64,000 nucleotides of DNA from an uncultured Ruficoccus sp. (lineage in GTDB: Bacteria > Verrucomicrobiota > Verrucomicrobiia > Opitutales > Cerasicoccaceae), in assembly GCA_965140785.1 (NCBI GenBank), contig OZ223518.1, positions 64,001 through 128,000 of the forward strand, in the 5' to 3' direction. A model generated the notes under the pieces. It had not been told where the DNA came from. It was given only the letters and a program-made list of their open reading frames with translations, and searched no databases. A program made the translations under genes and the position numbers. This document shows, piece after piece, positions 236-57,308 of this stretch (positions are counted from its first letter, which is position 1; the number at the start of each line of letters is the position of its first letter).

Positions 236-714
236 TAAGCGTTTGAAGGTTTGAGAGTTTGAGGGTTTGAGAGTTGATGGGCGGGGCTGAGGTCGAACGC
301 TTCGTCTGGTTCGCGGAGTTCAGCGGGCTTGAATTTCATGCCCTTGATCTCTGACTTCGCCAGGTAGTTGATGAAACCGCTCAGGAGGGTTTCGGCTTCG
401 GAGGCGAGTGCATAGGCCAAGTCGAATTGCTTTTGAGAGACATAAGACACGTCCAACATGACGTAGAGCTGGCTCTTGACTTCGGCCAGCGAGCCGCGGG
501 CAATGTACAGGAACTGCAAAAACTCCCGGTTCCCACTGCGCCCAAAGCCCTCGGCGATATTAGACATGACCGAAATACTGCTGCGCCGAATTTGATCGCA
601 CAGAGCAAAGTCCCGGACGACAGCTTCGGCGGACGTGAGACCATAGACCAAGCGCGAAAGCTCGCGAGCTTTCTGCCAGGCCTGAATCTCTTCAAATGTC
701 CGGATGCTTGCCAT
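235..714 (-). CDS. Four helix bundle protein (23S rRNA intervening-sequence protein / Avd-like family)
   Basis: Family motifs [30 protein letters not shown] and [16 protein letters not shown]. The C-terminal tail is encoded by the octamer repeats. Confidence 0.9.
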
Positions 715-755
715 CAACTGAACTTTCAAACTCTCAAACAATAAACTCTCAAACT
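241..755. repeat. Inverted octamer tandem arms (GTTTGAGA)n at 241-277 and (TCTCAAAC)n at ~723-755 flanking the four-helix-bundle gene
   Basis: gtttgaag gtttgaga gtttgagg gtttgaga versus ctttcaaac tctcaaac aataaac tctcaaac. Confidence 0.85.
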
Positions 756-769
756 CCCTCAGCCTCGGC

Positions 770-1528
770 TTAAGCCGACGCGGGGGCCAACTCTTCCTTG
801 ACCCAGTCGTAGCCCTTTTCCTCGAGTTCGAGGGCGAGGGTCTTGTCGCCGCTCTTGACGATGTGGCCGTTGTACATGACGTGGACGACGTCCGGCACGA
901 TGTAGTCGAGCAGGCGCTGGTAGTGGGTGATGACGAGGAAGCCGCGATCGGGGCCGCGCATCTGGTTGACGCCCTCAGCGACGATGCGCAGGGCGTCGAT
1001 GTCGAGGCCGGAGTCGGTCTCGTCCATGATGGCGTACTCGGGCTTGAGCATCATCATCTGGAGAATTTCGCAGCGCTTCTTTTCGCCGCCGGAGAAGCCG
1101 TCATTGACCGAGCGGGAGGTGAAGGAGCGGTCCATCTTGAGCTGGTCCATGGCGGCGTAGAGCTCCTTGTAGTACTTCGTGGCGACGATGTTCTCGCCCT
1201 CGGGCAGACGGGCCTGAACGGCGGCGCGGATGAAGTTGGCGATGGTCACACCGGGGATCTCTGCCGGGTACTGAAAAGCGAGGAAGAGGCCGGCGCGGGC
1301 GATTTCGTCCGGCTCCATACCGACAATATTCGTCCCGTCGAGGAGGGCTTCGCCACCGATGATGTCGTAGTCCTCGTGGCCGGCGAGGGCCTTGGCCAGG
1401 GTGCTTTTACCGGTCCCGTTGGGGCCCATGATGGCATGGACCTCGCCCTTGGGAACGGAGAGGTTGAATTCCTTAAGGATCGGCTTGTCGCCGATACTGA
1501 CGGTCAGGTTACGGATATCCAGTGACAT
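770..1528 (-). CDS. sufC: Fe-S cluster assembly ATPase SufC
   Basis: GPNGTGKST Walker [33 protein letters not shown]. Confidence 0.95.
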
Positions 1529-1605
1529 GATGTGTAAATGGCTGATTGTTAATTGTTAAATGGCTAATTGATAAAGGGCTACTGGTTGGTCTGGGGGCCT
1601 CCGGC

Positions 1606-2052
1606 TCAGGAAGTGTGGTCGGGGCTAAGGCCCTTGGGCGCATAGCCGCTGAAACTGAGTTTAAATTTCTTCGCCTCGAAACCGGATGGGAGGACGTTCG
1701 TGATCTCACGCATGAAGTTTTCGGGCAAATCGATATCGAACACCCGTCCGGTGGCCTCGTCCAGAAAATGTGCGTGCTCGCCGTCGTTAGGGCAGAAGCG
1801 GCTGGGTTCGCGCTCGTAGTTGAGCTTTTTCACCAAGTCGCACTCGACGAGGGTCTCCAGGCAGTTATAGACGGTGGCGAGCGAAATGGAAGGCATGGCC
1901 TGCTTGGCTCGGGCGTACACCTCGTCGGCCGTCGGGTGGTCGCGCTGGGTGAGAAGGACCAGATAGACGTGCTCGCGCTGGCGGGTGGCGCGCAGGCCGT
2001 TTTGCAGCAGGGCGTCCTCCAGTTCGTGTTTGGCGTTGGTGGCTAATTTCAT
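1606..2052 (-). CDS. Fur-family transcriptional regulator (PerR/Irr-like, no CxxC)
   Basis: GLRATRQR, HPTADEVY, SLATVYNCL, HAHF. Confidence 0.9.
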   Translation of the reverse strand: MKLATNAKHELEDALLQNGLRATRQREHVYLVLLTQRDHPTADEVYARAKQAMPSISLATVYNCLETLVECDLVKKLNYEREPSRFCPNDGEHAHFLDEATGRVFDIDLPENFMREITNVLPSGFEAKKFKLSFSGYAPKGLSPDHTS

Positions 2053-2076
2053 GGATGAAAACAGGGCTTAACTAAA

Positions 2077-2178
2077 TTGGAATGATTCCAGAAATCAACC
2101 GAAATTGAGAATTATTTTCATTACAATTAGCAATATTTCTCATGGGGATTGCGTAAACAAATAATGATTATCGTTACA
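2077..2178. promoter_or_regulatory. Cluster of Fur-family operator-like palindromes upstream of fur-sufC
   Basis: TGGAATGATTCCA (2078-2090), TGAGAATTATTTTCA (2106-2120, 7-1-7 with one mismatch), AATAATGATTATCGTT (~2160-2175). Confidence 0.65.
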
Positions 2179-2237
2179 AATAGCAGGCGAACTGCCAAGT
2201 GGAGGGGGAAGGGGTGGATTTTGGGTGAAAACGACAG

Positions 2238-2267
2238 AAAAAAGCCCGGGGTGGTGGCCCGGGCTTT
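2238..2267 (-). terminator. Rho-independent terminator
   Basis: Minus strand reads AAAGCCCGGG-ccaccac-CCCGGGCTTT followed by a T tract. Confidence 0.75.
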
Positions 2268-2306
2268 GCAGTGCTGGTTGTCGAAGCGGTGTTTATGCGA
2301 GCACGA

Positions 2307-2393
2307 CTACTGCGGTATCTTGTTCTCGCAGCAGGAGAACAGGAAGGTTGCTGCCACACACACCGCTACGGTTATGAGTGCTACGCTAAACAT
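2307..2393 (-). CDS. Putative 28-aa hydrophobic small protein MFSVALITVAVCVAATFLFSCCENKIPQ
   Basis: Manual translation ATG..TAG with one hydrophobic stretch, followed by the terminator at 2238-2267. Confidence 0.45.
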   Translation of the reverse strand: MFSVALITVAVCVAATFLFSCCENKIPQ

Positions 2394-2566
2394 GATAATA
2401 ATATAGACGTGGCTCGTGGGAATTCCTGACGATATAGTCAAAAAAAGGTGTTTTTCGTCCGCAACGGGGGGTGAGCACCGGCTCCAGACGGGGACCCGAG
2501 AGCGCGACGGGGTGAAAAAATGCCGTTGCCATCGACGGGCGCATTTTTCAAACAGGCCCTGAACAT

Positions 2567-2932
2567 ATGGAAACTTTTGAAAATCCCCACCCGGGCCGTG
2601 ACTACCTGATCCAGCACATCGCCGAGGAATTCACCTCCGTGTGCCCGAAAACGGGCCACCCGGACTTCGGCACCGTGGTGTTGACCTACATCCCGGCCCA
2701 GCTCTGCGTCGAACTCAAGGCCTACAAGCTCTACCTGCACGACTTCCGCAACAAGGGGATCTTCTTCGAGGCCGTGACGAACAAGATCATGGACGACTTG
2801 TGCGAGGTGCTCCAGCCCCGCTGGCTGCGTATCGAAACGATCTGGAAGGGCCGCGGGGGCATCCGCTCCGTCGTCCGTATCGAGCAGGCCGCCGACGACT
2901 TCGACGGGCCGACGCCGCCGTACTTCGGCTAG
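2567..2932 (+). CDS. queF: NADPH-dependent 7-cyano-7-deazaguanine reductase QueF
   Basis: EFTSVCPKTGHPDF, VELKAYKLY, RGGI. Confidence 0.93.
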   Translation: METFENPHPGRDYLIQHIAEEFTSVCPKTGHPDFGTVVLTYIPAQLCVELKAYKLYLHDFRNKGIFFEAVTNKIMDDLCEVLQPRWLRIETIWKGRGGIRSVVRIEQAADDFDGPTPPYFG

Positions 2933-3007
2933 TTTACTCAGCGAGGTGCTGAGGAGAAATGCTACGGGTCTCGCTCAGGCGCAAAAGGCGGCATCACCTC
3001 CCGGGGC

Positions 3008-3637
3008 TCAGACCGGCATCGTAATGTAGTGGAGAAACTCGTTGCGGTGCAGCAGCTCGATGCAGTCGCTCAGCACAATCGCGAGCAGAAACCAGACGAC
3101 CTCACGCAGGCCGCGCTCGATGATTCTCGGGTTCACGGTGATCTCCTCCGTGCGTTCGAGATGCAGGCCGCGCGGCCAGAAGCGCGGGATGTGCGCCACG
3201 TAGGCATCGAAGCTTGGACCAAAGAGGTCCCGGAGCCGGCTTTCCTCGCTCTGGATGACGCCCCGGTAATAGGATAGAAACAGGACCGCTGCGATCGAGG
3301 CGAGGATCAGGTTTTGCGCGGCGAGGAAGAAGCCGACGACCCCGATAAAGGAAAACAGGTACAGGGGATTGCGGCAAAGAGAATACGGGCCGGTCTGGCA
3401 CAGTTCCTTGTTCTTGCGCCCGGCGATGTACACCAGGCACCAGATGCGCCCCATGGCCGCAAACACGAGCAGGGTCATGCCGAGAAATTCCATCCCCTCA
3501 TAGGGCATGGAGCGGAAGCCGGATGGCACGCTGATCAGGACGCCTGCAAACAGCGCGCAGGCCATGATGAGGGAGACGGGCTTGCGGAGCCGCTCGAAGT
3601 TTTCCAGATACCGTGCCAGGTTTCCAAAGATACTCAT
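3008..3637 (-). CDS. ICMT/PEMT-family membrane methyltransferase
   Basis: Hydrophobic helices plus GPYSLCRNPLY and EE..L..LFG..FDAY...PRFWP. Confidence 0.8.
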   Translation of the reverse strand: MSIFGNLARYLENFERLRKPVSLIMACALFAGVLISVPSGFRSMPYEGMEFLGMTLLVFAAMGRIWCLVYIAGRKNKELCQTGPYSLCRNPLYLFSFIGVVGFFLAAQNLILASIAAVLFLSYYRGVIQSEESRLRDLFGPSFDAYVAHIPRFWPRGLHLERTEEITVNPRIIERGLREVVWFLLAIVLSDCIELLHRNEFLHYITMPV

Positions 3638-3780
3638 TGGAGCTTATGACGCTTCCGGGCTTGTCCGCGTTCAAAAAATAATTTGCACCAGCGCCGCTCG
3701 CTGCCCCTGATGGTGCCCAATCTGATTGCCGTGGCCCCGTGCTGGAAGAGGTCCCTTCCAGCTTTTTTTACAGCTGCGGG

Positions 3781-3990
3781 CTATTGCCCGTTGATGGACT
3801 CTTCCATCTGCTCCTCTTCGTAGCTGTTGATCTGGCCATCTGCCGCGAAGTTGTCCACCGACTGCGACTGCGTGGCATTCAGGCTCTTGATGGAGGTGGC
3901 GTTGGCGTCTTCCTCCACGTTTTTTTCGTACTGGGCGCAGCCTGCGAGCAGAGAGAGGGGCAGGAGAATAAGGAGAGCTTTATGCAGCAT
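3781..3990 (-). CDS. Small lipoprotein
   Basis: Signal peptide with lipobox LLAGC and an acidic tail. Confidence 0.65.
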   Translation of the reverse strand: MLHKALLILLPLSLLAGCAQYEKNVEEDANATSIKSLNATQSQSVDNFAADGQINSYEEEQMEESINGQ

Positions 3991-4062
3991 GGTGGGAATC
4001 TGGTGGGTGGCGGGCTGTCTTACAAACCTAAAGCGTTGGGAGCTTGTGCTATCAGATATTGG

Positions 4063-4359
4063 TCAGGCCCGGTATCGGATGAGAAAATAGATACCGCTCA
4101 TAATTCCAATCGCTATCAACGTCCATCCGATGTACTCATCGGGAAGCACAACCGTGTAGTAGATGCCAAAGCCAAAGCACATTATAATCTGAAAAATAAG
4201 CCCCTGCTTCTTGATGGATTGAGGGTCTTTTGCGGCCCTGATCCGGAATTTTTCCAAGCTGGATCTGAAAAATATGATCGGGATGAGGCCAAGCATCAAA
4301 AAAACAAACAACGTCAGCGTCGGATGCCTACTTAATAGCTCCATGCCTTGCTCATACAA
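4063..4359 (-). CDS. Hypothetical AT-rich small membrane protein
   Basis: About three hydrophobic segments; visibly lower GC than the flanks. Confidence 0.55.
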   Translation of the reverse strand: MYEQGMELLSRHPTLTLFVFLMLGLIPIIFFRSSLEKFRIRAAKDPQSIKKQGLIFQIIMCFGFGIYYTVVLPDEYIGWTLIAIGIMSGIYFLIRYRA

Positions 4360-4455
4360 CGTTTGTCTCTACGCATACAACCGTAAAGGGTATTCTGGGT
4401 AGGCTGCGGCTGCGCGTCGGCAATTCTAGATTGACTGAAATGCGTGCTCCTCGAC

Positions 4456-13589: not shown

Positions 13590-13753
13590 GGCAGGAGAAG
13601 GTTGCGGCTCTTATCCTTACTCAATTCAAATGATAAAACAAGCGCATCCGCGTTTCGTCCTTTGCGCAGACCGTCTCGTGTTCTCTTCGTGCTTTCCGCC
13701 TTTCCTGTTAAACCTATTTTCTAGTGGGGGCGCCCCTTGCGGAGAAATCGCGC

Positions 13754-19247: not shown

Positions 19248-19257
19248 TTCTTTTATG

Positions 19258-19405
19258 ATTCGTAAATTCGGGGATTTATTAATTCGAAAATTAAATCAAT
19301 CGAAAGTGAAAAAATGACGCGGGCTCGAAGACAGCGCAATCGACAATCGGCCCCAGCGCCCCCAAAAAAATCTACGAATTTATGAATCTATAAATCTACG
19401 AATTT
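19258..19405. repeat. Inverted octamer tandem arms, empty
   Basis: attcgtaa attcgggg atttatta attcgaaa versus aatctacg aatttatg aatctata aatctacg. Confidence 0.7.
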
Positions 19406-23662: not shown

Positions 23663-23861
23663 GGCTTTCGCAGTTTGGGAGTTCAGAGTTTGAAGGTTTG
23701 AAAGTTAAGGGTATGCGAGTCGGGCGTCGCGTCTAGTCAGAAGGGCAATTTCTCCGGGAGATCGCGGCTGTTCGTTCTTATGTCTGTTTGATTGCGGGTT
23801 GAGCAGCTTCGTTGTGGACAGGAGCGGTCGCCCACATGTCCCGGGGTAGCGGCCTTTCTGG

Positions 23862-24125
23862 CCGCGTAGGGGCGCAGCCCCTCCATGTCCAGTGCGGTCA
23901 CGCACCCGCGTAGGGGCGCAGCCCCTTCATGTCCAGTGCGGTCACGCACCCGCGTAGGGGCGGAGCCCCTCTATGTCCAGTGCGGTCACGCACCCGCGTA
24001 GGGGCGGAGTCCCTCCATGTCGAGTGCGGTCACGCACCCGCGTAGGGGCGGAGTCCCTCCATGTCCAGTGCGGTCACGCACCCGCGTAGGGGCGGAGCCC
24101 CTCTATGTCCAGTGCGGTCACGCAC
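23862..24125. repeat. Tandem array, 6 x 44 bp, of REP-like units
   Basis: Unit ccgcgtaggggcg(c/g)ag(c/t)ccct..atgtccagtgcggtcacgcac starts at 23862, 23906, 23950, 23994, 24038 and 24082; no unique spacers. Confidence 0.95.
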
Positions 24126-27523: not shown

Positions 27524-27605
27524 CACGGACGCATAGAGAAGGTAAAGAGGGGATAAAACTTATAGCTCCAAGCACCCCTCTGTGTTCTCTGTGCCCTCTG
27601 TGGTT
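27524..27605. repeat. 9-mer tandem arm (ctctgtg..)3 with a degenerate inverted partner
   Basis: ctctgtgtt ctctgtgcc ctctgtggtt; reverse complement of the arm at 44315-44344. Confidence 0.7.
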
Positions 27606-33581: not shown

Positions 33582-33626
33582 CCGCTATGGCACTTCCTTC
33601 CCGCTTTTCCAGTTAATCCCTTTTAT

Positions 33627-33834
33627 CTAGTGTATCGTTAGCTATGTTCTTGCTATAAAGATTGGGGACTCTGCGCCCCCAACCCCGCAGCAGGCAAAGC
33701 CTGCACTTTCGATGCTGCCGCATCGCGTCTGTGATTGCTGCTCTCAGCGACGCTGAGAGCAGCAATCACAGAGGAACATCGAAACTGACTTGCACCCAAA
33801 ACTTTTGCCAAGAACTAGGCTAACATAACACTCG
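33627..33834. mobile_element. MITE-like element with imperfect TIRs and an internal 22-bp perfect palindrome
   Basis: TIRs 33629-33652 and 33809-33832 (18/24 match); palindrome at 33728-33772. Confidence 0.6.
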
Positions 33835-33840: not shown

Positions 33841-34299
33841 ATGGAACCGATCCTCCCCCTCATCAGCTCGGGCACGGAAGGCCCGCTCGGACTCAAACAC
33901 CTGCCGCGGCTGTGGCTGAAGACGCTCCTGAGCGCCCACGGACGCCTGCCCGCCGGGTACAAAGACATCCGGCCCGGCTTCGACTTCATGGTGCTGGAGG
34001 GGCTGGGGGTGGACCCCGACGAGGCCCGCGACTACATTTTTAGGGAAAAGCCCGGCTACCTGGCCTTTGAGGGGTGGATACGCGCCCGGCCCGGGGCGGA
34101 CACGAGCCCGGAGAACATCGCCCGGATTAACCGGCTGGTGGTGGAGCGCCAGAAGTCCCCTGCCTCCCGCGCCCAGCTGCTGGCTGAAAACGGCCTGCCC
34201 TCCGACAGCCCGATCGGCGACTCCATTATGCTCAACAATCTCGACGATTGGCGGAGCCTGTACGCAAGCCTGTCAGGCGGCGGTTTTCAAGGGGATTAA
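33841..34299 (+). CDS. DUF5069-like protein
   Basis: PLISSGTEGPLGLKHLPRLWLK, GFD..VL..LG, NNLDDW. Confidence 0.7.
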   Translation: MEPILPLISSGTEGPLGLKHLPRLWLKTLLSAHGRLPAGYKDIRPGFDFMVLEGLGVDPDEARDYIFREKPGYLAFEGWIRARPGADTSPENIARINRLVVERQKSPASRAQLLAENGLPSDSPIGDSIMLNNLDDWRSLYASLSGGGFQGD

Positions 34300-34535
34300 C
34301 CGCAAAGGCGCAAAGACGCAAAGGTGAGAGAACGAGGGCTACGACTCAACTTAAGGCGTTCTAGCCACGGATGAGCACGAATGAAACGCGGAATATCGTT
34401 TTCCGAATGAAATCAGCCGTGTTTATCCGTGAAATCTGTGGTTAAAAAAACTCTGCCCGGATGCGCGCGAGCACCGCACCTGACCCAATGCTCCGCTATG
34501 TGCTTTCTTTTCGCTCTTCCCGGTCTTCCTGTTAA
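34298..34535. repeat. Cluster of three short-period repeat families
   Basis: cgcaaagg cgcaaaga cgcaaagg; ccacggatgagcacgaat versus atccgtgaaatctgtggtt; ctcttcccggtcttcctgttaaa. Confidence 0.7.
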
Positions 34536-40454: not shown

Positions 40455-40765
40455 TTAACAGGCAGGCCGGGAAGAGGCGGGAACTGCCCTTGGGCGTGTT
40501 GTCAAAATCCCCCTTCCGTGTGCCTGAGAGTTGTCATCCTGAGCAGCCTTGCTGAGAAGCCAAAACAATCTCTGCCTATAGACTCATTCTTTTTTAGAAG
40601 TGGTATTACTCAGGATGACAACAGAGAGAGAACGATGGCGGATAATGCTGTTGCGCATCATCGTTAAACCACGTCGTAACCGGCTGGGGCTTCTCTATAT
40701 CCGCCGCCAGACTCCAACGTTGCGGTTTGAGCCTTCCTTCCGCTCTTCCCGGCCTTCCTGTTATA
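40455..40765. repeat. Inverted arms enclosing a nested 13-bp inverted repeat
   Basis: taacaggcaggccgggaagaggcggg versus ccgctcttcccggccttcctgtta; inner ttgtcatcctgag (40531-40543) and ctcaggatgacaa (40609-40621). Confidence 0.8.
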
Positions 40766-42818: not shown

Positions 42819-44296
42819 TTACCCCAGCACCTTGGCGAGCATCTCCTGGATTTTACGGGGGTCGGCTTTGCCCTGGGTGGCTTTCATGATGGGGCCGATG
42901 AGGGAGTTGATGGCTTTCTTGTTGCCTTCTTTGTATTGCGAGATGGCCTTCTCGTGTTTGGGATCGGCGGCAACTTCGCGCACGATGCCTTCGAGTTCGT
43001 CGTCGTTGTCTTCGGTTTGCAGGCCCTTTTCCTCGACGATGGCGGCGGGCATTTTGCCGGAGGCGTACATCTCGCTAAAGACATCCTTACCGATCTGTTT
43101 GGTGATGACGCCGTCCCTCGATCAATAGGGTAAGCTCGGCGATATGGGCGGGGCGTGAGCTTGCACTCGCCCAGCGGGCAGGCGCCCCTCCTCGTCGCCA
43201 CCGGAGAGCTCGCGCAGCAGGTCGTTGGCGATGAGGTTGGCCACGGCCTTGGGGGCGACTTTGCCGCCGGTGTCTTCGAGGGCTTCCTCGAAAAAGTCGG
43301 CCAGCTCCTTGTCCGGGCACAGCACGGAGGTGAGCGTGTAGGGCAGGTCCATCTGGTCCATGAAGCGCCGTTGCCGGTCAAAGGGCAGTTCGGGCAATTC
43401 TTTGGCGAGAAGCATCGAGCTGCTTCTGCGCCGATGGTGACGGGCATGAGGTCGGGCTCGGGGAAATAGCGGTAGTCGTGGGACTCCTCCTTGTCACGCA
43501 TCTTGGTCGTGACCTGTGCGTGCTCGGGTCCCAGCGGCGCGTTTGCTGGTAAATGGTTTCGCCGGAAGTGACGGCGTGGATCTGGCGCTTAATCTCGTAG
43601 GCGACAGCGTTGCGTACGCCCGAGATGGTGTTCATGTTCTTGAGTTCGACTTTGACACCGAGTTCTTCCTGGCCCTTGGGACGGACGGAAATGTTGGCGT
43701 CGCAGCGCATCTGGCCCTTTTCCATGTCGCAGTCGGAGAGTCCGGCGGCGAGGATGTTGTTGCGCAGTGCGGTGAGGAAGGCGAAGACCTCGTCGGCGTT
43801 GTGCATGTCGGGCTCGGTCACGATCTCGCAAAGCGGGCGCACCGGCGCGGTTGTAGTCCACGAGGCTGTCGTTGGCGAAGTGGGTGAGCTTGCCCACGTC
43901 CTCCTCCAGGTGAATGCGCGTCAGCTCGACCATGCGGTGGTCGCCCATGACATTACGCGAAGCCCCGAGCATCTCGATCTCGACCTCACCGCCTTCGCAG
44001 ATGGGCTGGTCATACTGGGAGAGCTGGTAATTCTTCGGGCTGTCCGGATAGAAGTAGTTTTTGCGGTCCCACTTACAGCGCTCGGCGATCTTGCACTTGC
44101 ACAGCAGGCCGAGCAGGACGGTCTTGCGGACGGCTTCCTTGTTCATGACCGGGAGCACGCCGGGCAGGGCGAGCACGACGGGGTCGGTCAGGGTGTTCGG
44201 CTCGGCCCCGTAGTGGTACGGCGCGCGGGTGAACATTTTTGATTTCGTTTTGAGCTGGACGTGGACTTCCAGCCCGATGTCTGCGGTGAATTCCAT
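42819..44296 (-). CDS. gatB: Asp/Glu-tRNA amidotransferase subunit B, split by several indels
   Basis: [42 protein letters not shown] and GKADP occur in different frames. Confidence 0.93.
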
Positions 44297-44314
44297 GATG
44301 TAGAAAAGTGGTTA

Positions 44315-44344
44315 AACCACAGAGGGCACAGAGTGCACAGAGGG
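44315..44344. repeat. Solo 9-mer tandem arm (cacagag..)3 upstream of the gatB start
   Basis: aaccacagagggcacagagtgcacagaggg. Confidence 0.8.
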
Positions 44345-44345
44345 T

Positions 44346-44618
44346 TTATGAGGTGTGGCTGTTGTGATTCTCGTTATTATCTCTTCCAAAAGGGTTGGGT
44401 AGGTAATCATATATGTGTGCAGCCTCTACTAAGTGTGGCGTTGCGTGGTAAAGGATTGATGAAACAATTTCAGTGGCCTCTTGATTTGAATATGACTTGG
44501 GGTTGCTATATAGGAGGTAAAGCTTTTCTAGATCATCAATCCAATCGGTCATGTGGAAAAAAAAAGTCCGACTTTTTCTGATGTGTTGGTGTTTCTTTTG
44601 CTCCTCGATACACTTCAC
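44346..44618 (-). CDS. Hypothetical AT-rich ORF (possibly a fragment)
   Basis: Low-GC ORF between gatA and gatB. Confidence 0.35.
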   Translation of the reverse strand: MKCIEEQKKHQHIRKSRTFFFHMTDWIDDLEKLYLLYSNPKSYSNQEATEIVSSILYHATPHLVEAAHIYDYLPNPFGRDNNENHNSHTS

Positions 44619-44657
44619 CTAGCAGATTGAGAATGTCGTCTTTGTTATCCTGTAATT

Positions 44658-45017
44658 TCATCTGATTATTTTGCCATTAAACCTGTTTGTTTGTTTGTTT
44701 GTTCTTTCTTCAGTGTTTGTGTTCATCCATTTCGGAGGCTTGAACTCAACTTTACCCTTATTTCTCTTGATAACTTTAGTGAGCCGTGTGCCACAAAAAG
44801 GGCAATATTGAATAGCCTGACTCCCTCTAAGAGTTAGATTATAGCTAGGCACTTTCAACTCTCCTTTGTCTATCGCGTTTTCTGTGCCAACGTCCACTGC
44901 TCGAAATTCTACAATAAAATAAGCACGACCAGCGTCGATCTCCTCTCCACGAATGGAAAAGCCACGTTGATCGGGCATATCATGCCATTGTTTAAACCGT
45001 TCGCAACAAGCCTTCAT
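44658..45017 (-). CDS. Hypothetical AT-rich protein with CC and CPFCG (zinc-ribbon-like)
   Basis: MKACCERF...IQYCPFCGTRL. Confidence 0.6.
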   Translation of the reverse strand: MKACCERFKQWHDMPDQRGFSIRGEEIDAGRAYFIVEFRAVDVGTENAIDKGELKVPSYNLTLRGSQAIQYCPFCGTRLTKVIKRNKGKVEFKPPKWMNTNTEERTNKQTNRFNGKIIR

Positions 45018-45151
45018 GCGATTTAACTGTCTTCAGGTTTATTCTTTTAACTTCGCCGCCCGAAGAGGACTGATACGAATTGCGTCATTAACGAATCCTC
45101 CAACGCAGTCTATATGCCCAGTCGCAGTGCCTTAAGTTTTCATGTTTAAAT

Positions 45152-46628
45152 TTATGACAACTCCGCGACCGCGTCCTTCCACTCGTGGGCCTGTTCGTAG
45201 CGGTGGGCGACGGCGAGCAGCTCGTCTTCGGCGAAGGGCTTGCCGATCAGTTGGAGGCCGATGGGTAAGTTTAGCGGAGGTGAAGCCGCACGGGCACGGA
45301 GATGCCCGGCAGGCCGGCGAGGTTAACATTGATGGTGTAGATGTCGTTGAGGTACATCGACAGCGGGTCTTCCTTGGCCCCGAGCTTTAAAGGACGGGGT
45401 GGGAGTGGTCGGCGTGAGGATCGTGTCCCACCGATTTAAAGACGCTGCATGAACTCTTCGCGGATGAGGGTGCGGACCTTCTGGGCGCGCAGGTAGTAGG
45501 CGTCGTAGTAGCCGCTGGAGAGCACGTAGGTGCCGAGAATAATGCGGCGCTTGACCTCCTCGCCGAAGCCCTCGGCGCGGCTCTTGTAGTACAGGTCGAT
45601 GGCGTCAGCTTGGCATCCTTGGAGCGGTGGGTGTAGCGGATGCCGTCGTAGCGGGCGAGGTTCGAGGACGCCTCGGCCGTGGCCAGGATGTAATAGGTCG
45701 GGATGGCGTACTCGGTCATGGGCAGGGAAACTTCCTGCACGGTGTGGCCGTCCTTTTCGTAAAAGGCGATGGCGGCCTCGACGGCGGCCTTGATCTCGGG
45801 GTCGAGCCCCTCGGCGAAGCACTCCTTGGGGACGCCGATGGTCCATGGGCCTTCCTTTTCGGCGAGGGCGGTGCGGTAGTCGGGGATCTCGGCCTTGTAA
45901 GAGGTGGAGTCGCGGCGGTCGTGCCCGGCGATGGCCTGGAGCAGGAGCGCGGCGTCCTCGACCGTGCGGGCCAAAGGGCCCGATCTGGTCCAGTGAGGAG
46001 GCAAAGGCGGCCAGCCCGTAGCGCGAGACGAGACCGTAGGTCGGTTTCAAGCCGACCACACCGCAGAAGGCCGCCGGTTGGCGGATGGAGCCGCCGGTGT
46101 CGGAGCCGATGGACAGCGGGGATTCCAGGGCGGCTACCGCAGGCGGCGCTGCCGCCGGAGCTGCCGCCGGGCACGCAGTCGGTGTTCCACGGGTTACGGC
46201 TGGTCTGAAAGGCGGAGTTCTCCGTAGAGGAGCCCATGGCAAAACTCGTCCATGTTGAGCCGCCCCCAGAGGACCGCGCCCTGGGCTTTCAGCAAGCTCG
46301 GTCACGTGCGCGTCGTAGGGCGAGACAAAGTTCTCCAGCATGCGGCTGGAGCAGGTCAACGGCTGGTCCCTTGACCGCGAGGATGTCCTTGAGGGCGACG
46401 GGAATGCCGTCCAGGCGGGCCGTGGCATTCCTTGGCCTTGCGTCGCTCGTCACTGGCCTTGGCCTGGGCGAGGGTCCACTCGGCATCCCGCGAGTTGAAG
46501 GCCTTGACGCGGTCTTCCACCGCCTCGGTGCGGTCGATAAAAGCCTGTGCGACCTCGACGGCGGAGACGGCCTTGCTGGCGAGAGCGGCAGATAGCTCGG
46601 CGGCGGTCTTTTGAATTAAGTCACTCAT
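45152..46628 (-). CDS. gatA: Asp/Glu-tRNA amidotransferase subunit A, split by several indels
   Basis: [50 protein letters not shown] and LPIGLQLIG occur across frames. Confidence 0.93.
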
Positions 46629-50835: not shown

Positions 50836-50838
50836 GCC

Positions 50839-51747: not shown

Positions 51748-51808
51748 GGAGAGGCCTTTCTGGCTCCGTAGGGGCGAAGCCCCTCCTTGCCAGCGGGTGC
51801 AACCCGCA
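51748..51808. repeat. REP-like three-hairpin element at the pheT stop
   Basis: ggcctttctggctccgtaggggcgaagcccctccttgccagcgggtgcaacccgc. Confidence 0.8.
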
Positions 51809-54229
51809 CTAGCTGCGCAGGGTGTAGCCCATGTCCTTCATGGCGGCCTGGATGGCGTCGAAGGCGGTGGCGACTTCCTTGTCCTTGAGGGTGCGGTCAG
51901 GGGCGCGGAAGCTGATGGCGAAGGCCAGGCTCTTCTTGCCCTCGGGCAGGCCCTGCCCGGCGTAGAGGTCGAAGGCCTCGACACCCTCGCAGGCGAACTC
52001 CTTGCCCACGGCCTTGCTGGCGGCCTTGAGCAGGTCGCGCCGGACGGTCTCGGCGGTGGTGGCGGCATCGACGACGAGCGCGAGGTCCTTGGTCGAGGGC
52101 GGGAAGCTGCTGAAGGGGCTCAGGCGAACGGCCTTGCCGGTTTTTTTTGCCAAAAACTCGGGCAGGAGAATCAGCTCGCCGGCCAGGACGAGGGTGTCGA
52201 TGTCCCAGTCCTTGGTGGCGTCCACACTGACCAGCCCGGCGAAGGCCTTGTAGCCGTTTTTCTTCCAGCAGGCGGCACGGGCGGCGTGGCCGCTCTGCCA
52301 GAAGGGCTCGTCCTCGAAAAGTTTATAGTCGAGCTTCTGGGGCTTGATCCCGGCCAGGGTGGCTAGCTCGGCGAGGAGCTTTTTGGCGGTAAAGAAGTCC
52401 GGCGCTTCGCGTTCGCGCCAGCGGCGGTGTCCGTCGTCCACGGCGATGACAAAGCCCACACTGGCCAGCTCCCAGAGCTTGCCCCCGACGGCGCGGAAGA
52501 CGCGCCCGGTCTCGCAGAGGCGGGCCGGGTGGTTGCCGTTGTTGGCGTTCAGGCGCAGGGCGTCGAGCAGGCCGGGAATGAGCGAGGCTCGCAGGTGGCT
52601 CTGCTCGGCTGTGAGCGGGTTGTCGAGCTGGAGGGCGTCGGCGCGTTCGGGGCCAAACCACTTGGCCAGGCGGGTGCCGTCGGTCAAGGTGTAGTGCGAG
52701 CACTCGGCGAAATTCTCCCCGGCGAGCTTCTGGACGGCGTGGCGGTTGAAGAGGGCCAGCGGGTCGTCCTCGCGGGTGAGGCCGGTGGCCTTGACACGGG
52801 CCTCGGGGATCTTCGGGGTGCCGTGCAGGCGGATGAACTCCTCCACCAGGTCGATCGGGCGGTCCACCTCGGGCCGGAACGACGGCACGAGCACGCTCCA
52901 CTGGTAGGAACCCCGGTCCACGCGGAAGCCCAGGCGGGTGAAGGTCTCGGCGATGGCCTCGTCCTCCACGCCGAAGCCGCAGACGCGGCGCACGTAGTCG
53001 GGGTTGATGTTGATGGTGCGGTCGCCACGGGGCGCCTTGCCCACGGTGATGCATTTGCCGGCGACTTCGCCTCCGGCCACTTGCAGGATGAGGTCGATGG
53101 CGCGGCGGGCGGCGAAGTCCACCCCGACCGGATCGACATCGCGGCTGAAGCGGTGCGAGCTATCGGAAAAGAGGTTGAGCGCGCGTGAGGTGGCGCGGAT
53201 GGAGCCGGGGCGGAAGTACGCGCTCTCCAGCACAATGTCCACCGTGGCGGAATCCACCTCGGCATCGAGGCTGCCCATGACCCCGGCCACGACGAGCGGG
53301 CGCTCGGCGTCGGCGATGACCATCATGGACGGCGTCAGCTTGCGCTTGTGCTCGTCGAGGGTGACGATCTGCTCGCCCTCGGCGGCCTGGCGGACGACGA
53401 GTTTGCCGCCCTTGATCTTTTGCGCGTCAAAGGCGTGCAGGGGCTGGCCGGTCTCCATCAGGACGTAGTTGGTCACGTCCACCACGTTGTTGATCGGGCG
53501 CAGGCCGACGGCTTCCAGTGCTTCCTTGAGCCAGTCGGGGGAGGGGGCGATTTTTACGCCCTTGATACTGGTGGCGGTGTAAAGGGGGCAGTCGGGCGTC
53601 TCGACCTCGACGGCGCTGATCAGGCCCTCGCCGTCGCCGGGGTGCTGCTTGACCTTGGGCAGGCGCAGCTCCTGGCCGAAGATGGCGGCGAGCTCGCGGG
53701 CCACGCCGATGTGGCTGAGGCAGTCGCCGCGGTTGGCGGTCAGCTCCAGCTCGATCACGGTATCCCCGCCGGGGAAAACGTCGTTGATCGGCGTGCCGAT
53801 TTCGGGGCGCTGCTCCAGAATGAGCAGGCCAGAGTGGTCCTCGCCCATGCCCAGCTCCTTGGCCGAGCACATCATGCCGTGCGATTCGACGCCGCGCAGC
53901 TTGCTTTTCTTGATCTTGAAATCGCCGGGCAGGACGCAGCCGGGCAGGGCCACGGGCACGCGGTCGCCGACTTTGTAGTTGGTTGCGCCGCAGACGATCT
54001 GGCGCGGCTCGCCGTCGTCCACCTTGACCTGACAGACGCCGAGGCGGTCGGCATCCGGGTGCTGCTCGCGGGAGAGAATCTCGCCCACGACAAGGTTTTC
54101 AAAGGTGGGCATGGCGGTGGACTCCACGTCTTCGACCTCAAGCCCGACCATGGGGAGGGCTTCGGTCAGTTCGTCCGCGCTCACGTCGAGATCGACGTAG
54201 TTCTTGAGCCAGTTGAGGGAAATTTTCAT
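51809..54229 (-). CDS. pheT: Phenylalanyl-tRNA synthetase beta subunit
   Basis: MKISLNWL, HPDADRL, IVCGATN, NRGDCLS, INNVVDVTNY, FDLYAG. Confidence 0.97.
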   Translation of the reverse strand: MKISLNWLKNYVDLDVSADELTEALPMVGLEVEDVESTAMPTFENLVVGEILSREQHPDADRLGVCQVKVDDGEPRQIVCGATNYKVGDRVPVALPGCVLPGDFKIKKSKLRGVESHGMMCSAKELGMGEDHSGLLILEQRPEIGTPINDVFPGGDTVIELELTANRGDCLSHIGVARELAAIFGQELRLPKVKQHPGDGEGLISAVEVETPDCPLYTATSIKGVKIAPSPDWLKEALEAVGLRPINNVVDVTNYVLMETGQPLHAFDAQKIKGGKLVVRQAAEGEQIVTLDEHKRKLTPSMMVIADAERPLVVAGVMGSLDAEVDSATVDIVLESAYFRPGSIRATSRALNLFSDSSHRFSRDVDPVGVDFAARRAIDLILQVAGGEVAGKCITVGKAPRGDRTININPDYVRRVCGFGVEDEAIAETFTRLGFRVDRGSYQWSVLVPSFRPEVDRPIDLVEEFIRLHGTPKIPEARVKATGLTREDDPLALFNRHAVQKLAGENFAECSHYTLTDGTRLAKWFGPERADALQLDNPLTAEQSHLRASLIPGLLDALRLNANNGNHPARLCETGRVFRAVGGKLWELASVGFVIAVDDGHRRWREREAPDFFTAKKLLAELATLAGIKPQKLDYKLFEDEPFWQSGHAARAACWKKNGYKAFAGLVSVDATKDWDIDTLVLAGELILLPEFLAKKTGKAVRLSPFSSFPPSTKDLALVVDAATTAETVRRDLLKAASKAVGKEFACEGVEAFDLYAGQGLPEGKKSLAFAISFRAPDRTLKDKEVATAFDAIQAAMKDMGYTLRS

Positions 54230-54253
54230 CGGGAAATTTTTAATATTTTAATG

Positions 54254-54377
54254 GGTCACGAAGGACACAAAGAAGGCACGAAGAGCACGAAGTGGAGTGC
54301 CGGATCTATAGAGGTAAGTCCTATCCTTAATTAAAAATCTTTGTGTGCTTCGTGTCTCCTTCGTGATCTTTGTGACC
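54254..54377. repeat. Inverted ~9-mer tandem arms between pheS and pheT, empty
   Basis: ggtcacgaaggacacaaagaaggcacgaagagcacgaag versus ctttgtgtgcttcgtgtctccttcgtgatctttgtgacc. Confidence 0.85.
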
Positions 54378-54395
54378 TTCTTTATATCCTATAAG

Positions 54396-55436
54396 TCACG
54401 CGAACTGCTGGAGGAAGCGCAGGTCGTTCTGGTAAAAGTAGCGGATGTCGTCGATGCCGTGGACGATCATCGCGATGCGTTCGATGCCCATGCCGAAGGC
54501 GTAGCCGGTCCACTGCTCGGGGTCGTAGCCGACGGCCTTGAAGACGTTCGGGTCCACCATGCCACAGCCGCCCAGCTCGATCCACTGGTTGGAGAGTTTT
54601 CCTAAGTTGGGGGTCTTCATATCGAGTTCGAAGGAGGGCTCGGTGAAGGGGAAGAAGCTCGGGCGCAGGCGCACCTCCGAACCCTTGCCGAAGATCTCTG
54701 CCACGAAATAGTCGAGAATGGCCTTGAGGTCCACGATGGTGACGTTCTTGTCCACATAGAGCCCTTCCATCTGGTGGAAGTTCGCGCTGTGGGTGGCGTC
54801 GGTAGTGTCGCGGCGGAAGACACGGCCCGGCGAAATGATGCGCAGGGGCGGCTCCTCCTTCATCATGGTGCGAATCTGCACGGTGGAGGTGTGGGAGCGC
54901 AGCAGGTAGCGTTCGGAGCCGTGCTTGGAGACGTTGTCCACCTCGGCGGCCTCGGGCAGGAAGAGCGTGTCCTGGGCGTCGCGGGCGGGGTGGTCCTCGG
55001 GGGTGTTTAGCGCGTCAAAGCAGTACCACTCAGTTTCGACCTCAGGCCCCTCGGCCACGGTGAAGCCGACCTTGCGGAAGGCCTGCTCCATGCGGCGGCG
55101 CGTCTGGGTGAGCGGGTGCAGGCTGCCGGTGGCGGTGTCGGGGCAGGGGAGTGTCGGGTCGATGGGCGGGCCGAGCTTTTCGGCGGTTTCAGCGGCCTCG
55201 ATGCGCGCCAGTGCGTCGGTATAGAGGGCCTCAATCTGCTGTTTGGTGGCGTTGAGGAGCTTGCCCATGGCGGGCTTGTCTTCCTTAGGCACGTCTTTCA
55301 TGCCCTTCATGGCGGCGGTCAGCTTGCCGTTGGGGCCGGAGATGGTGGCCTTGAAACTCTCGAACGCGGCGCGCTTATCCAGCGCAGGCACGGCGCTCTC
55401 GACTTCGGTCACGATGGCTGCGAGTTGCTTTTGCAT
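54396..55436 (-). CDS. pheS: Phenylalanyl-tRNA synthetase alpha subunit
   Basis: HPARDAQDT, LRSHTS, FHQMEG, FPFTEPS, GYAFGMGIER. Confidence 0.97.
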   Translation of the reverse strand: MQKQLAAIVTEVESAVPALDKRAAFESFKATISGPNGKLTAAMKGMKDVPKEDKPAMGKLLNATKQQIEALYTDALARIEAAETAEKLGPPIDPTLPCPDTATGSLHPLTQTRRRMEQAFRKVGFTVAEGPEVETEWYCFDALNTPEDHPARDAQDTLFLPEAAEVDNVSKHGSERYLLRSHTSTVQIRTMMKEEPPLRIISPGRVFRRDTTDATHSANFHQMEGLYVDKNVTIVDLKAILDYFVAEIFGKGSEVRLRPSFFPFTEPSFELDMKTPNLGKLSNQWIELGGCGMVDPNVFKAVGYDPEQWTGYAFGMGIERIAMIVHGIDDIRYFYQNDLRFLQQFA

Positions 55437-55443
55437 GGGAAAG

Positions 55444-55602
55444 AAATGGTTTAATAGTTAAATGGTTGAATGGCTATTGGGGAAAATGGCGGAAGAGGTA
55501 ATTGCCGCGCTGGCATATAGGTGCGGGTTCATGGGGCTGGTTTTTCCGCCAGCCGCCGCGCTTGCTTACTAACCATTTAGCCATTCAGCCATTTGACCAT
55601 TT
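55444..55602. repeat. Inverted octamer tandem arms between rplT and pheS, empty
   Basis: aaatggtt taatagtt aaatggtt gaatggct versus aaccattt agccattc agccattt gaccattt. Confidence 0.85.
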
Positions 55603-55611
55603 TCAACCAAC

Positions 55612-55640
55612 AAAAAAGGCGGCCATGGTGAGGCCGCCTT
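55612..55640 (-). terminator. Terminator after rplT
   Basis: Minus strand reads aaggcggcc tcaccat ggccgcctt tttt. Confidence 0.75.
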
Positions 55641-55676
55641 CGGTAAATTTCAAGTGCGAGTTGCTGGGGACGCTTT

Positions 55677-56036
55677 TTAGGCGTTGACCGCGCCCTTGGC
55701 CTTTTCGACCAGAGCGGCGAAGGCGGCTTCGTCATGGATGGCGAGCTCGCTCAGGGCCTTGCGGTCCAGCTCGATACCGGCGGCTTTGATACCGGCCATA
55801 AATCGGCTGTAGGCAATGCCGTTCATGCGGCAGGCGGCATTGATGCGGATGATCCACAGCTGGCGGAACTCCGTCTTTTTCTTGCGGCGGTCACGGTAGG
55901 CGTAAACGCCGGCGTGCATGTTGGCGTCCTTGGCGTAGCGGAAGAGCCGGGACTTGTTACCGAAATAGCCCTTGGTGGACTTGAGGACGCGCTTGCGGCG
56001 TTCGCGCGAAGCGGGTGCGTTGGTTGCTCTAGGCAT
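55677..56036 (-). CDS. rplT: 50S ribosomal protein L20
   Basis: KGYFG, AYRDRRKKK, FRQLWIIRINAA, DRKALSELA. Confidence 0.97.
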   Translation of the reverse strand: MPRATNAPASRERRKRVLKSTKGYFGNKSRLFRYAKDANMHAGVYAYRDRRKKKTEFRQLWIIRINAACRMNGIAYSRFMAGIKAAGIELDRKALSELAIHDEAAFAALVEKAKGAVNA

Positions 56037-56120
56037 GTTGTATAACTTTCTGGATGTTTGGGAGCGGCAGGGTCGCCTGGTGGTTGTTCACCCTGTCCGG
56101 CTCAGTTATCAGTCAATCAC

Positions 56121-56321
56121 TTAGATGTTGTGATGCGGAAGGCCGACGCGGAGCTGCTTGACGTAGCCGGACGGGACGAGCTGGTCCTGACGGGCGGCAC
56201 GCTTTTGCTTGGAGCTCTTGTTGCGCAGGAGGTGGCGGTGGTTGGGCTTGCGACGCATAACCTTCCCGGTGCCGGTCACCTTGAAGCGCTTGGCCATTGC
56301 TTTGCGGGTTTTCTGACTCAT
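56121..56321 (-). CDS. rpmI: 50S ribosomal protein L35
   Basis: [30 protein letters not shown]. Confidence 0.95.
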
Positions 56322-56530
56322 GATCTTGGGAAAAGCGGAGAAAACAAAGAGTTTTCGGGCTCTTGGCAAGGAGAAATGTATAAAAGTGGTCTGCCGGAAA
56401 GGATGTCCGGCTTGACCGCTCGGCTACCCCGGACGGGCGAAGCTTGCATTCCCGCACTTGATTCCGGCGCGGAATTTGCTATGTTAGTTGTGTGTCTTAA
56501 ATGACGCGAAAGGAGATTACAGATTCATAA

Positions 56531-56950
56531 ATGAGCGAAAATAAAGACTTTGGCGATGTAGTGGAGTTGATCCTGAAGGAGGACAGCCGCTTCGACAAGG
56601 GAGCGTATTACTTTGTCCGGCAGGGTCTCGACCACACCCTGCGCAACATGGACAACGACCAGGAGTCGGCACCCCGGCATGTCACCGGGCAGGAGCTGCT
56701 GGAGGGCATCCGCGACTTCGCGCACAACCAGTACGGGCCCATGGCCTACAGCCTGCTCGACCACTGGGGCATCCGCAAGTGCGACGACTTCGGCGAGATC
56801 GTTTTTAACCTCGTCGAGTACGGCGTGCTGGGCAAGACCGACAGCGACAAGAAGGAGGACTTCACCGGCGGCTACGACTTCCGCGAGGCCTTCCTCAAGC
56901 CCTACCTGCCCAAAAACTCCAAGGGCGAGCTCCATCCTGAGCAGAGCTGA
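56531..56950 (+). CDS. Minf_1886-type (PVC-specific) conserved protein
   Basis: D.RF...AY.FV..GL, HVTGQELLEG, WGI....DFGEIVFNLV. Confidence 0.8.
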   Translation: MSENKDFGDVVELILKEDSRFDKGAYYFVRQGLDHTLRNMDNDQESAPRHVTGQELLEGIRDFAHNQYGPMAYSLLDHWGIRKCDDFGEIVFNLVEYGVLGKTDSDKKEDFTGGYDFREAFLKPYLPKNSKGELHPEQS

Positions 56951-57016
56951 GGGGCGGGAGAGATTGAGCTGGGCGCGCAAAGCTCAGGGCCCGTTCGGGC
57001 TGGATGCCGGTCGCGC

Positions 57017-57112
57017 AAACCCATTCTGGGTTGGAAATACCCCCGCTAAATCGTGTTTGCCCCGAGTAGAGGAGCAACCCGGGGCTAGACTGTATAACCC
57101 CGTTGGGGTTAG
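57017..57112. repeat. Degenerate REP-like palindromes
   Basis: aaccc attct gggtt, caacccggggct, aacccc gtt ggggtt. Confidence 0.4.
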
Positions 57113-57308
57113 GCCGGTTTATATATCTAGTGTGGGCTCTGCGCTTCCAAGCTGCGAGCATCCAGAGCCATTTAAGAAAAATTATAGCCCCGAAAAGGCA
57201 CGAAGATTCACAAAAAAGTTTTGAAATGATCGGTGCCTTTCAGCGTTCAGTGATTTTATCCGTGTGCATCCGCGTTTCATCCGCGGCTACAATAAAAATT
57301 GAAACGCT

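Follow-up and report, generated by a model that had tools for sequence, protein, structure and literature searches.

Inverted arrays of short tandem words at operon junctions of an uncultured Ruficoccus are probably the arms of very small gene cassettes

REPINs form dispersed populations of intergenic hairpins that are tied to a RAYT, a gene present in a single copy, passed on vertically for the most part and bordered by those same repeats. The intervening sequence (IVS) of 23S rRNA can carry an open reading frame (ORF) for an S23p/four-helix-bundle protein; the available text of its description reports such elements from Coxiella burnetii and also Leptospira, with the stem being cut by RNase III in Coxiella (PMC4990558). 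Two kinds of short tandem repeats are likewise described in the literature: 1) the GGGAATC/GGGGAYT heptamers of Xanthomonas and Nostoc, which are intergenic and form 70-75 inverted pairs in Xanthomonas (PMC4692102); 2) the TAACTGA repeats of Beggiatoaceae, Cyanobacteria and Bacteroidetes, which lie directly upstream of start codons (PMC4679880). Here we analyze a 64,000-nucleotide stretch of DNA from an uncultured Ruficoccus sp. (G000:C47:64001-128000, hereafter the window; assembly G000 comprises 4.36 Mb in 50 contigs at 59% GC), for which an original prediction, made from the sequence alone, had pointed to inverted arrays of 7-10 nt units at operon junctions and had suggested either an insertion or cargo-exchange system or an mRNA-processing signal. 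We conclude, with a probability of about 60%, that these arrays are the terminal inverted arms of very small gene cassettes, which appear to be selfish, and of related elements that lack a gene.

This reading is carried by the association of particular genes with the arms, the correspondence between words and protein subfamilies, the turnover at fixed junctions, the co-orientation of the enclosed genes with the flanking operons and the abutment of the elements on stop and start codons. A complete cassette would have three parts, namely 3-5 purine-rich words as the 5' arm, a gene of 110-160 codons that lacks a promoter, and the reverse-complement arm, with the gene coding for a GxxExxY protein, predicted to be PD-(D/E)XK nuclease-like, or a four-helix-bundle '23S IVS' protein, or sometimes being another small ORF. 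Such cassettes would be lodged in short spacers between genes that are transcribed together and would be oriented like the operon, their cargo presumably being expressed by read-through. The gene-less pairs would be non-autonomous or decayed relatives that have the arms, and not the interior, in common with the complete cassettes, and the solo arms would be half-decayed remnants.

Among described elements, the ORF-bearing IVS of 23S rRNA comes closest to the present cassettes. The two are alike in being units of ~430-520 nt with terminal inverted repeats of ~28-35 nt that act as a stem around an ORF of the PF05635 family, in being inserted in a highly transcribed unit, and in being viewed as selfish. 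However, the IVS lies in helix 25 or 45 of 23S rRNA, whereas the present cassettes lie in the spacers of protein genes and have arms built of tandem 7-11 nt words; moreover, a second cargo family (GxxExxY) uses the present design, and there is a large gene-less population here and none for the IVS. The likeness is drawn here from sequence, RNase III cleavage being a feature of the Coxiella element. Not one Rfam family, including those of rRNA, attains its gathering score in the window, and the flanking genes are protein genes (sufC/ADH, pheS/pheT). A literature search covering non-subscription journals recovered descriptions of the parts and no paper describing the cassette as such. What appears to be new is the occurrence of IVS-like, apparently selfish cassettes outside rRNA, their word-built arms and the gene-less population.

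Short-period arrays were identified with Tandem Repeats Finder (TRF), pairs with an inverted-repeat finder, and arm pairing by folding in comparison with shuffled sequences. These methods bear out that the predicted sites are inverted arrays of 7-11 nt words (Table 1). TRF recovered short-period arrays at 241-275 and 721-756 (period 8), 19368-19403, 23687-23706, 27576-27602, 34301-34324, 34366-34384, 44318-44344, 54272-54292 and 55573-55593; the inverted-repeat finder recovered the pairs 19257/19365, 40456/40743, 54256/54338 and 55453/55578; and the arms pair end to end in the predicted fold at 5/5 empty-pair sites folded. The filled pair around the four-helix-bundle gene and all the predicted empty pairs are thereby confirmed, as is the pair at 40456-40763 that encloses another repeat, a 13-nt inverted repeat. 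Four of the predicted solo arms stand, the exception being that at 44315-44344, which is what survives here of a cassette found complete in two congeners, its cargo in G000 having been replaced by a ~800-nt insert. Arms at 34289-34324, 34505-34535 and ~33592-33623 had been missed. All arrays of at least three words lie outside genes, the sole overlap being with an over-extended frame of the four-helix-bundle gene, and the arms are indeed poorer in GC than their surroundings (0.437 vs 0.61 for the window). By Pfam, the junction genes are ADH, sufC, fur, tsaB-like, rpoN, VOC, gatB/gatA, pheT, pheS, rplT and rpmI. As had been stated, there is no transposase: none of the 65 window ORFs scanned against Pfam belongs to a transposase family.

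The gene association is close to complete. In G000, 2/2 genes of the PF05635 (four-helix-bundle) family and 5/5 of the PF13366 (GxxExxY) family, one of them frameshifted, lie between inverted word arms, and these account for 7 of the 9 filled pairs found; the other two enclose small ORFs at C14:33683-34081 and C25:205167-205487. The five cargo ORFs that belong to neither family match no Pfam or NCBIfam family above cut-off. The association extends to other genomes. Of 30 four-helix-bundle loci drawn from 22 genomes within the order, 18 are flanked by arms with a score of 30 or more, as against 0/30 controls, and periodicity is visible at several of the loci that score lower. Among the GxxExxY genes of the genus (five genomes), 27/28 reach an arm score of at least 32, while the controls attain at most 21. 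We also scanned species-representative genomes across phyla with the GxxExxY alignment only, the four-helix-bundle alignment having no conserved stretch. This gave 80 loci, 76 of them with both flanks, from Bacteroidota, Acidobacteriota, Chloroflexota, Planctomycetota, Cyanobacteria and several proteobacterial classes, along with matches in Ignavibacteriota, Omnitrophota, Margulisiibacteriota and one Methanosarcinales archaeon. Arms scoring at least 32 were found at 52/76 of these loci vs 3/76 controls, and 55/57 of those scoring at least 30 are purine-rich on the 5' side. Their words are variants of C-R-C-R-R-A-G at a spacing of 8-11 nt, often with an outer TTAACC. The PDDEXK_3 family is listed, in the relevant part of its description, as being of unknown function and as having undergone many transfers (PMC3424549).

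At G000:C29:4680-5480 a trmL-like tRNA methyltransferase gene (TIGR00185, E 9e-47, under the equivalog cut-off) is bracketed by two empty GTTTGAG hairpins, and thus a host gene can look 'filled' when it merely lies between two separate elements. At G003:C12:220068-221865 (loci L078 and L070) a pair of GxxExxY cassettes that belong to a single subfamily (78% identity) stand in tandem ~1.1 kb apart; the orthologous site of G000 has a single frameshifted copy (C39:231616-231965).

The word family tracks the subfamily of the cargo protein. GxxExxY proteins of the genus that are 83-94% identical use common words and remoter subfamilies use different ones, and two four-helix-bundle proteins (L018 and L020) that are 49% identical and stand in different contexts are both flanked by GAATGAY words. 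The original prediction had held the sequence families to be unrelated; instead, each of them recurs genome-wide and most have a C-R-C-R-R-A-G-type core. Eight word families of G000 each have a filled member, and for families orphaned in G000 (CACGGATGA, CGCGAAG) masters are present in sister genomes. In G004, the hairpins on either side of pheS are built of the very words found around that genome's own GxxExxY gene, L072. Arrays of three GTTTGAG words number 53 in G000, 46 in G002, 33 in G003 and none in either G001 or G004, i.e. they occur in exactly those genomes that carry the GTTTGAG-armed four-helix-bundle gene (G000, G002, G003). A reversed-pattern control for these counts is not independent, as the reversed periodic pattern fits the same arrays. 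In having family-specific populations, with the GTTTGAG population missing where the gene is missing, the elements resemble the REPIN-RAYT system; unlike it, the word-flanked genes are PF05635 and PF13366 members and not a Y1 transposase, the arms are of tandem words rather than REP palindromes, and the loops differ among copies.

The comparison of G000 with four congeners (G001, G002, G003 and G004; all relatives used here are from one order), of which the first three are roughly equal in protein identity to G000 and G004 is the farthest, revealed that the same junctions are filled, empty or clean in different genomes. 1) At sufC-ADH, G000, G002 and G003 are filled with the four-helix-bundle gene between GTTTGAG arms, G001 has a clean 28-nt spacer, and G004 has an empty element of the GATTTGTAAAT family. 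2) At rplT-pheS, G000 and G003 have an empty AATGG element, G001 is clean, and G002 and G004 have empty elements of CACAGAG-type and CACAGAG/CACGGAG words respectively. 3) At pheS-pheT, the empty elements are of the CACGAAG family in G000 and G003, of CACAGAG-type in G002 and of CACAGAG/CACGGAG words in G004, while in G001 a small membrane ORF with two helices comes after a CACAGAG arm. 4) At gatA-gatB, G002 (469 nt) and G004 (465 nt) have a full GxxExxY cassette, G003 has an empty AATGG element, G000 retains the start-proximal arm next to a ~800-nt insert with two unknown ORFs, and G001 has an unknown 171-aa ORF and retains only a terminal GTTTAACC. Like variation is seen upstream of tsaB, downstream of a radical-SAM gene and upstream of a DUF2851 gene, so that the state varies at every orthologous junction examined. 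At another site (L068, L069 and L074) the flanks are homologous, but the GxxExxY proteins are only 57-61% identical, as against 83-94% for orthologues at other sites, and the words differ, which argues for replacement of the whole cassette at a fixed site. Alignments of orthologous empty junctions made with MAFFT and inspected by eye show arms that are ~84-90% identical around loops that cannot be aligned, third codon positions of pheS being 79% identical; either the arms are constrained or homogenized, or loop turnover outpaces what point mutation permits. An automated splitting into arm, loop and arm with global identities was discarded, as it chose wrong registers and picked neighboring terminators against a random 50-mer baseline of 0.56.

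To place the window in its genome we merged the partners of TRF arrays with a separate seed-and-extend scan for inverted repeats with loops of at most 300 nt. The whole of G000:C20 and G000:C39 beyond ~277 kb, which show extreme AT-richness and AT-only tandem arrays and are perhaps foreign or mis-binned DNA, were excluded from the counts. Among 861 merged TRF arrays, 63 have a reverse-complement partner scoring at least 36 within 2 kb, vs 7 in the reversed and 21 in the complemented control. The scan found 134 merged inverted repeats vs 5 mirror repeats, with 119/134 lying outside crude gene calls, which span only 73% of the genome. Both catalogues combined yield 58 word-armed hairpins in G000 of ~12 recurring word families: GTTTGARR, CACGAAGRR, CACRGAGRR, CGCAAAGR, CACGGATGA, CACAAAAAGG, CGCGAAGTCA, TAACAGGAAGG, CGGATGAAACG, AATGGYTA, GTGCTTAG, GGTCATT and GATTCGTAAAT. 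The core that most of them have in common is the one also found across phyla. The GGTCATT unit is the same heptamer as TTGGTCA of the cyanobacterial STRR2 repeats. The 5' arm is purine-rich in 36/38 periodic hairpins vs 46/80 non-periodic ones, a rule that holds for ~11/12 families (copies inside a family not being independent). A regular-expression catalogue demanding at least three words was left unused, since partner arms are degenerate and solo arms were over-called. Paired arms in excess of both controls, occupancy that varies among relatives and the enrichment of two gene families (7/7 of their genes between arms) support the insertion or cargo-exchange part of the original prediction in substance, and none of the three findings named beforehand as refuting it was made.

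As proposed for the GGGAATC heptamers, such arrays might instead be immobile simple-sequence or non-B-DNA repeats (G-quadruplex, H-DNA or slippage) with no tie to genes. There are points of resemblance: both kinds are intergenic, of short-period tandem units with one strand purine-rich, two to six 7-nt units in a row and about four preferred, with the G-rich strand after stops and the C-rich strand before starts and with depletion between divergent genes; the present elements show the same placement within 50 nt of stop and start codons (G-rich/C-rich on the sense strand) and the same depletion between divergent ORFs. In the available text on the Xanthomonas and Nostoc heptamers these too are stop- and start-proximal and in inverted pairs (PMC4692102), and in the accessible portions of both heptamer papers the repeats are taken to form quadruplexes or to be translational-regulator sites, with no link drawn to enclosed genes (PMC4692102, PMC4679880); neither 'four helix' nor 'S23' is mentioned in PMC4679880. 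Nevertheless, the gene association described above is near-total, and most of the present words have no GGG (e.g. GTTTGARR, CACGAAGRR, AATGGYTA, CGCAAAGR; among families without G-tracts of three are likewise GTTTGAG, CACGAAG and AATGGTTA), the criterion for the quadruplex-forming heptamers (Rehm et al.) being at least 4 such tracts. Furthermore, the two arms of a pair agree in the order of their word variants (e.g. C47:4391), which indicates that they are copies and not independent products of slippage. We hence regard this alternative as very improbable. Arms can grow by slippage, as seen at G000:C18:108002-108101, where one GTTTGAGA array has reached 12.5 perfect copies and its partner arm, at a distance of 150 nt, has the normal 4 words.

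Of the 58 elements, 30 lie between co-directional, 7 between convergent and 3 between divergent genes, with 18 unclassified, the genome-wide spacers of 20-400 nt numbering 1076, 333 and 355 respectively; the elements are thus depleted between divergent genes (3/40 classified vs 355/1764 spacers). Between co-directional genes, the gap from the stop codon to the 5' arm has a median of 9 nt (at most 25 nt in 19/29), and that from the 3' arm to the first in-frame start a median of 12 nt (at most 25 nt in 20/29). The predicted proximity to start codons therefore holds, but it is not specific to starts. The element is in effect the entire spacer, and the residual ~20 nt fits the clean 28-nt spacer of G001. 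Where the flanks are co-directional, the cargo is co-oriented with them in 28/28 cases, representing ~16 independent sites, and it is apparently expressed through operon read-through.

These positions raise the alternative that the hairpins are RNA elements serving the host (RNase III sites, mRNA stabilizers or devices for translational coupling) that evolved in place, with the small genes merely using them as landing pads. Such a role would sit well with 30/40 classified elements lying between co-directional genes and abutting stop and start codons, with arms being kept where loops are not, with the strong predicted stems at 4/5 of the folded empty-pair sites (z from -3.7 to -5.4 for the strand listed first), and with gene-less copies, each with a unique loop, greatly outnumbering filled ones; the 23S IVS stem is, moreover, a documented RNase III substrate in the part of the literature available on it (PMC4990558). 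Landing pads do not, however, predict that the word type should track the cargo subfamily across genera and phyla. A conserved host function is also hard to reconcile with housekeeping junctions that are clean in one congener and bear unrelated words in others, and the lack of a sense-strand G.U bias and the seven elements between convergent genes also weigh against this alternative. On balance we consider a host-serving origin unlikely.

Several results weigh against the cassette interpretation itself. The co-occurrence of GTTTGAG arrays with their gene rests on five related genomes and could be explained by shared ancestry, and G001 is generally poor in elements (3 CACRGAG arrays vs 6-39; 2 GxxExxY genes vs 5-7). 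Most high-identity cassettes among the congeners are at orthologous positions, such that recent transposition is not seen directly and inheritance is for the most part vertical, with turnover in episodes. Comparison of the 40 loops that measure at least 25 nt gave no loop-loop match at E <= 1e-4, comparison of the loops with cargo genes gave only one 14-nt chance match, and tblastn of the cargo proteins on the loops gave three marginal matches (E 0.018-0.037); with no detectable cargo remnant, descent of the gene-less copies from filled cassettes is not supported. Target-site duplications are not apparent at 57 elements (k = 2: 3 vs 5 in the shifted control; k = 3: 2 vs 2), the palindromic TTAA at the ends of some families being indistinguishable from an extension of the inverted repeat. 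Searches for an integrase, a Y1 transposase and, in the window, any transposase found no mobility enzyme tied to the arms. Folding energies show no consistent bias between sense and antisense, G.U-compatible mismatches number 44 on the sense vs 35 on the antisense strand (p = 0.37), and the AT-rich hairpin at 19257-19405 is no stabler than shuffled sequences (z -0.7; 46/200 shuffles fold as well).

The same observations bear on two models in which the elements are moved by known enzymes. If they were ordinary MITEs (miniature transposable elements with inverted repeats) or REPIN-like repeats that a classical transposase or a RAYT (Y1 transposase) mobilizes in trans, with the small genes as passengers, one would expect what is indeed seen, namely small, non-coding, multi-copy and dispersed intergenic families with terminal inverted repeats. 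Some copies are near-identical including loop and flanks (five in the CGCGAAGT family), two CACAAAA copies have a common loop, and the genome has other MITE-like families as well as two PF01797 (Y1 transposase) ORFs at C10:480168 and C43:224747. Yet neither of these ORFs has a catalogued word hairpin within 1.5 kb, and unlike MITEs the main families have no target-site duplication, no conserved interior and no transposase-bearing parent: what the full-length versions enclose is a GxxExxY gene, a four-helix-bundle gene or an unknown small gene, and never a transposase. We therefore judge this model to be quite improbable. One CGCGAAGT-family hairpin (G000:C34:159251-159462) is nested within a larger inverted repeat with CGGATGAACG-type word ends.

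The other model takes the cassettes to be integron-like and the hairpins to be attC-type recombination sites recognized by structure. Promoterless small ORFs, many without assigned function, the conservation of site architecture rather than sequence, and cargo exchange at fixed sites would all be in line with it, and some element ends resemble GTTRRRY, which we take to be the pertinent consensus. Integron cassettes, though, form arrays next to attI, whereas the present elements are dispersed singly; each gene has two inverted arms instead of one attC; and a search of the genome for the integron integrase (TIGR02249) gave 12 tyrosine-recombinase-like matches, none of which is above cut-off. An integron-like origin thus has hardly any probability in our estimate.

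Returning to selfish cassettes, we suppose that they move as units, perhaps with a part played by the protein that they encode; this protein might bind the words in the way that the multi-site ends of transposons are bound by protein. Replacement at a junction could additionally occur via recombination in the conserved flanking genes. A more elaborate and tentative version is that the cassette proteins, be they GxxExxY nuclease-like or pentameric four-helix-bundle, recognize their own words and propagate or sustain a genome-wide population of gene-less hairpins with these words, that the bay between the arms exchanges genes, and that the arms loop the insert out of the transcript. With regard to the last step, it is conceivable, by analogy with the 23S IVS, that the arms pair in the transcript and bring stop and start to ~20 nt from each other again, perhaps with a cut by RNase III. 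Looping-out of this kind would restore the spacing and would hence explain why insertions are tolerated in coupled housekeeping operons.

Were the more elaborate version true, it would amount to a partnership like that of RAYT and REPIN, with two protein families that are not transposases and that span many phyla, and one mechanism would cover 7-11 nt intergenic repeats, ORF-bearing rRNA IVSs and two large, unexplained families of small proteins; these three oddities could then be faces of one selfish-cassette design. The genus offers a clean natural experiment, with the same housekeeping junctions being clean, empty, filled or differently filled in five relatives, so that function and mobility are directly testable. 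For genome annotation, the arms can mislead ORF callers and flag hot spots at which small foreign genes enter operons.

The former effect is illustrated by the window's own four-helix-bundle gene. In G000 its frame continues across the arm 241-277, which sits 5 nt from the start codon of ADH (233-235), and ends at a TAA overlapping this ATG, while the orthologous frame in G002 and G003 ends before the arm; the PF05635 domain spans 379-693. The closest solved chain to the encoded protein is 2gsc_A. PDB 2gsc is XCC0516 of Xanthomonas campestris, deposited as five chains, and it is for this species that inverted GGGAATC heptamer arrays are described in the available account (PMC4692102).

Table 1. 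Word arms, hairpins and cargo in the window (positions in nucleotides from its first letter)
Feature	Position	Strand	Basis or remark
5'-type arm of filled cassette, GTTTGARR words	241-277	+	TRF period 8, 4.4 copies
Cargo: four-helix-bundle / 23S rRNA IVS-protein gene	235-714	-	PF05635 E 6e-32; TIGR02436 E 4e-31
Partner arm of filled cassette, CTCAAAC words	721-756		TRF period 8, 4.6 copies
Solo arm, AATGG/CCATT family	1533-1575		7 nt upstream of sufC ATG on sense strand
Composite solo 3'-type arm, CGGATGAAACG/CGCAAAG-like and TAACAGGAAGG-family words	13660-13712		Sequence
Empty hairpin, GATTCGTAAAT family, upstream of tsaB-like gene	19257-19405		24-nt arms, 83% complementary
Solo arm of GTTTGA words	23673-23706		10 nt upstream of VOC/glyoxalase start, sense strand
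Empty hairpin, CACAGAG family, degenerate 5' arm	27524-27605		Fold z -4.2 on +, -2.6 on -
Additional arm	~33592-33623		Sequence
Solo 5'-type arm, GGGGATTAACC end and CGCAAAG words	34289-34324		Sequence, TRF
Empty hairpin, CACGGAT/CACGAAT family	34363-34444		Fold z -4.7
Solo 3'-type arm, TAACAGGAAGG family	34505-34535		Also kept in G003
Pair of TAACAGGAAGG-family arms	40456-40476 / 40743-40763		21 nt each, 95% complementary, 266 nt between
Surviving start-proximal arm of gatA-gatB cassette, CACAGAG words and GGTTTAAC end	44310-44344		Congener comparison
Replaced cargo, AT-richer ~800-nt insert	44345-45150	-	ORFs 44346-44618 and 44658-45017, no known family
Empty hairpin, CACGAAG family, pheS-pheT	54254-54377		Fold z -5.4
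Empty hairpin, AATGG family, between rplT terminator-like hairpin and pheS	55444-55602		Fold z -3.7
Solo 3'-type arm, CGGATGAAACG family	57250-57290		Sequence

Some of the arms in Table 1 can also be followed among the congeners or placed relative to their neighbors. The solo arm upstream of sufC is kept in G003 and absent from G001, G002 and G004; that upstream of the VOC gene is kept in G003 and absent in G001; and the site of the hairpin upstream of the tsaB-like gene has the same family in G002 and is clean in G001. The composite arm lies ~42 nt from the stop of a DUF1501 gene, the hairpin with the degenerate 5' arm sits between convergent alanine symporter and ClpX-like genes, the surviving gatA-gatB arm stands 13 nt upstream of the gatB ATG, and the arm family of the 40456-40763 pair also flanks a GxxExxY gene at G000:C25:201567-201911.

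At the gat locus (42884-46428) both gatB and gatA appear broken in this assembly, possibly by a frameshift, as a pseudogene or through an assembly error. The gatB ORF (43589-44296) matches its congeners over residues 1-155 only (98-99% identity), the congener frames being of 494 aa; in Pfam the GatB_N pieces are split across two ORFs and the Amidase match is partial.

The genome also has repeat families without periodic words, two of which have copies in the window. The first is a MITE-like element of 169 nt (57309-57477) with perfect 22-nt terminal inverted repeats (CTAGGCAGTGTCTTCAAACCTC), separate from the word arms, of which there are several more genome copies that agree in the 125-nt spacing and whose ends are identical or nearly so. 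The second, again separate from the word arms, is a perfect 22-nt hairpin with a 1-nt loop (33728-33772) belonging to a ~20-member family of short hairpins that start with TC-N-GCG-A/T-TT and may be terminators or REP-like. A further class distinct from the word arms comprises six tandem 44-nt units at 23862-24125 (95% matching, TRF score 472), to which single related units ('ggccagaaaggccgctacccc'-like) occur at ~51760-51800 and in the flanks of congeners.

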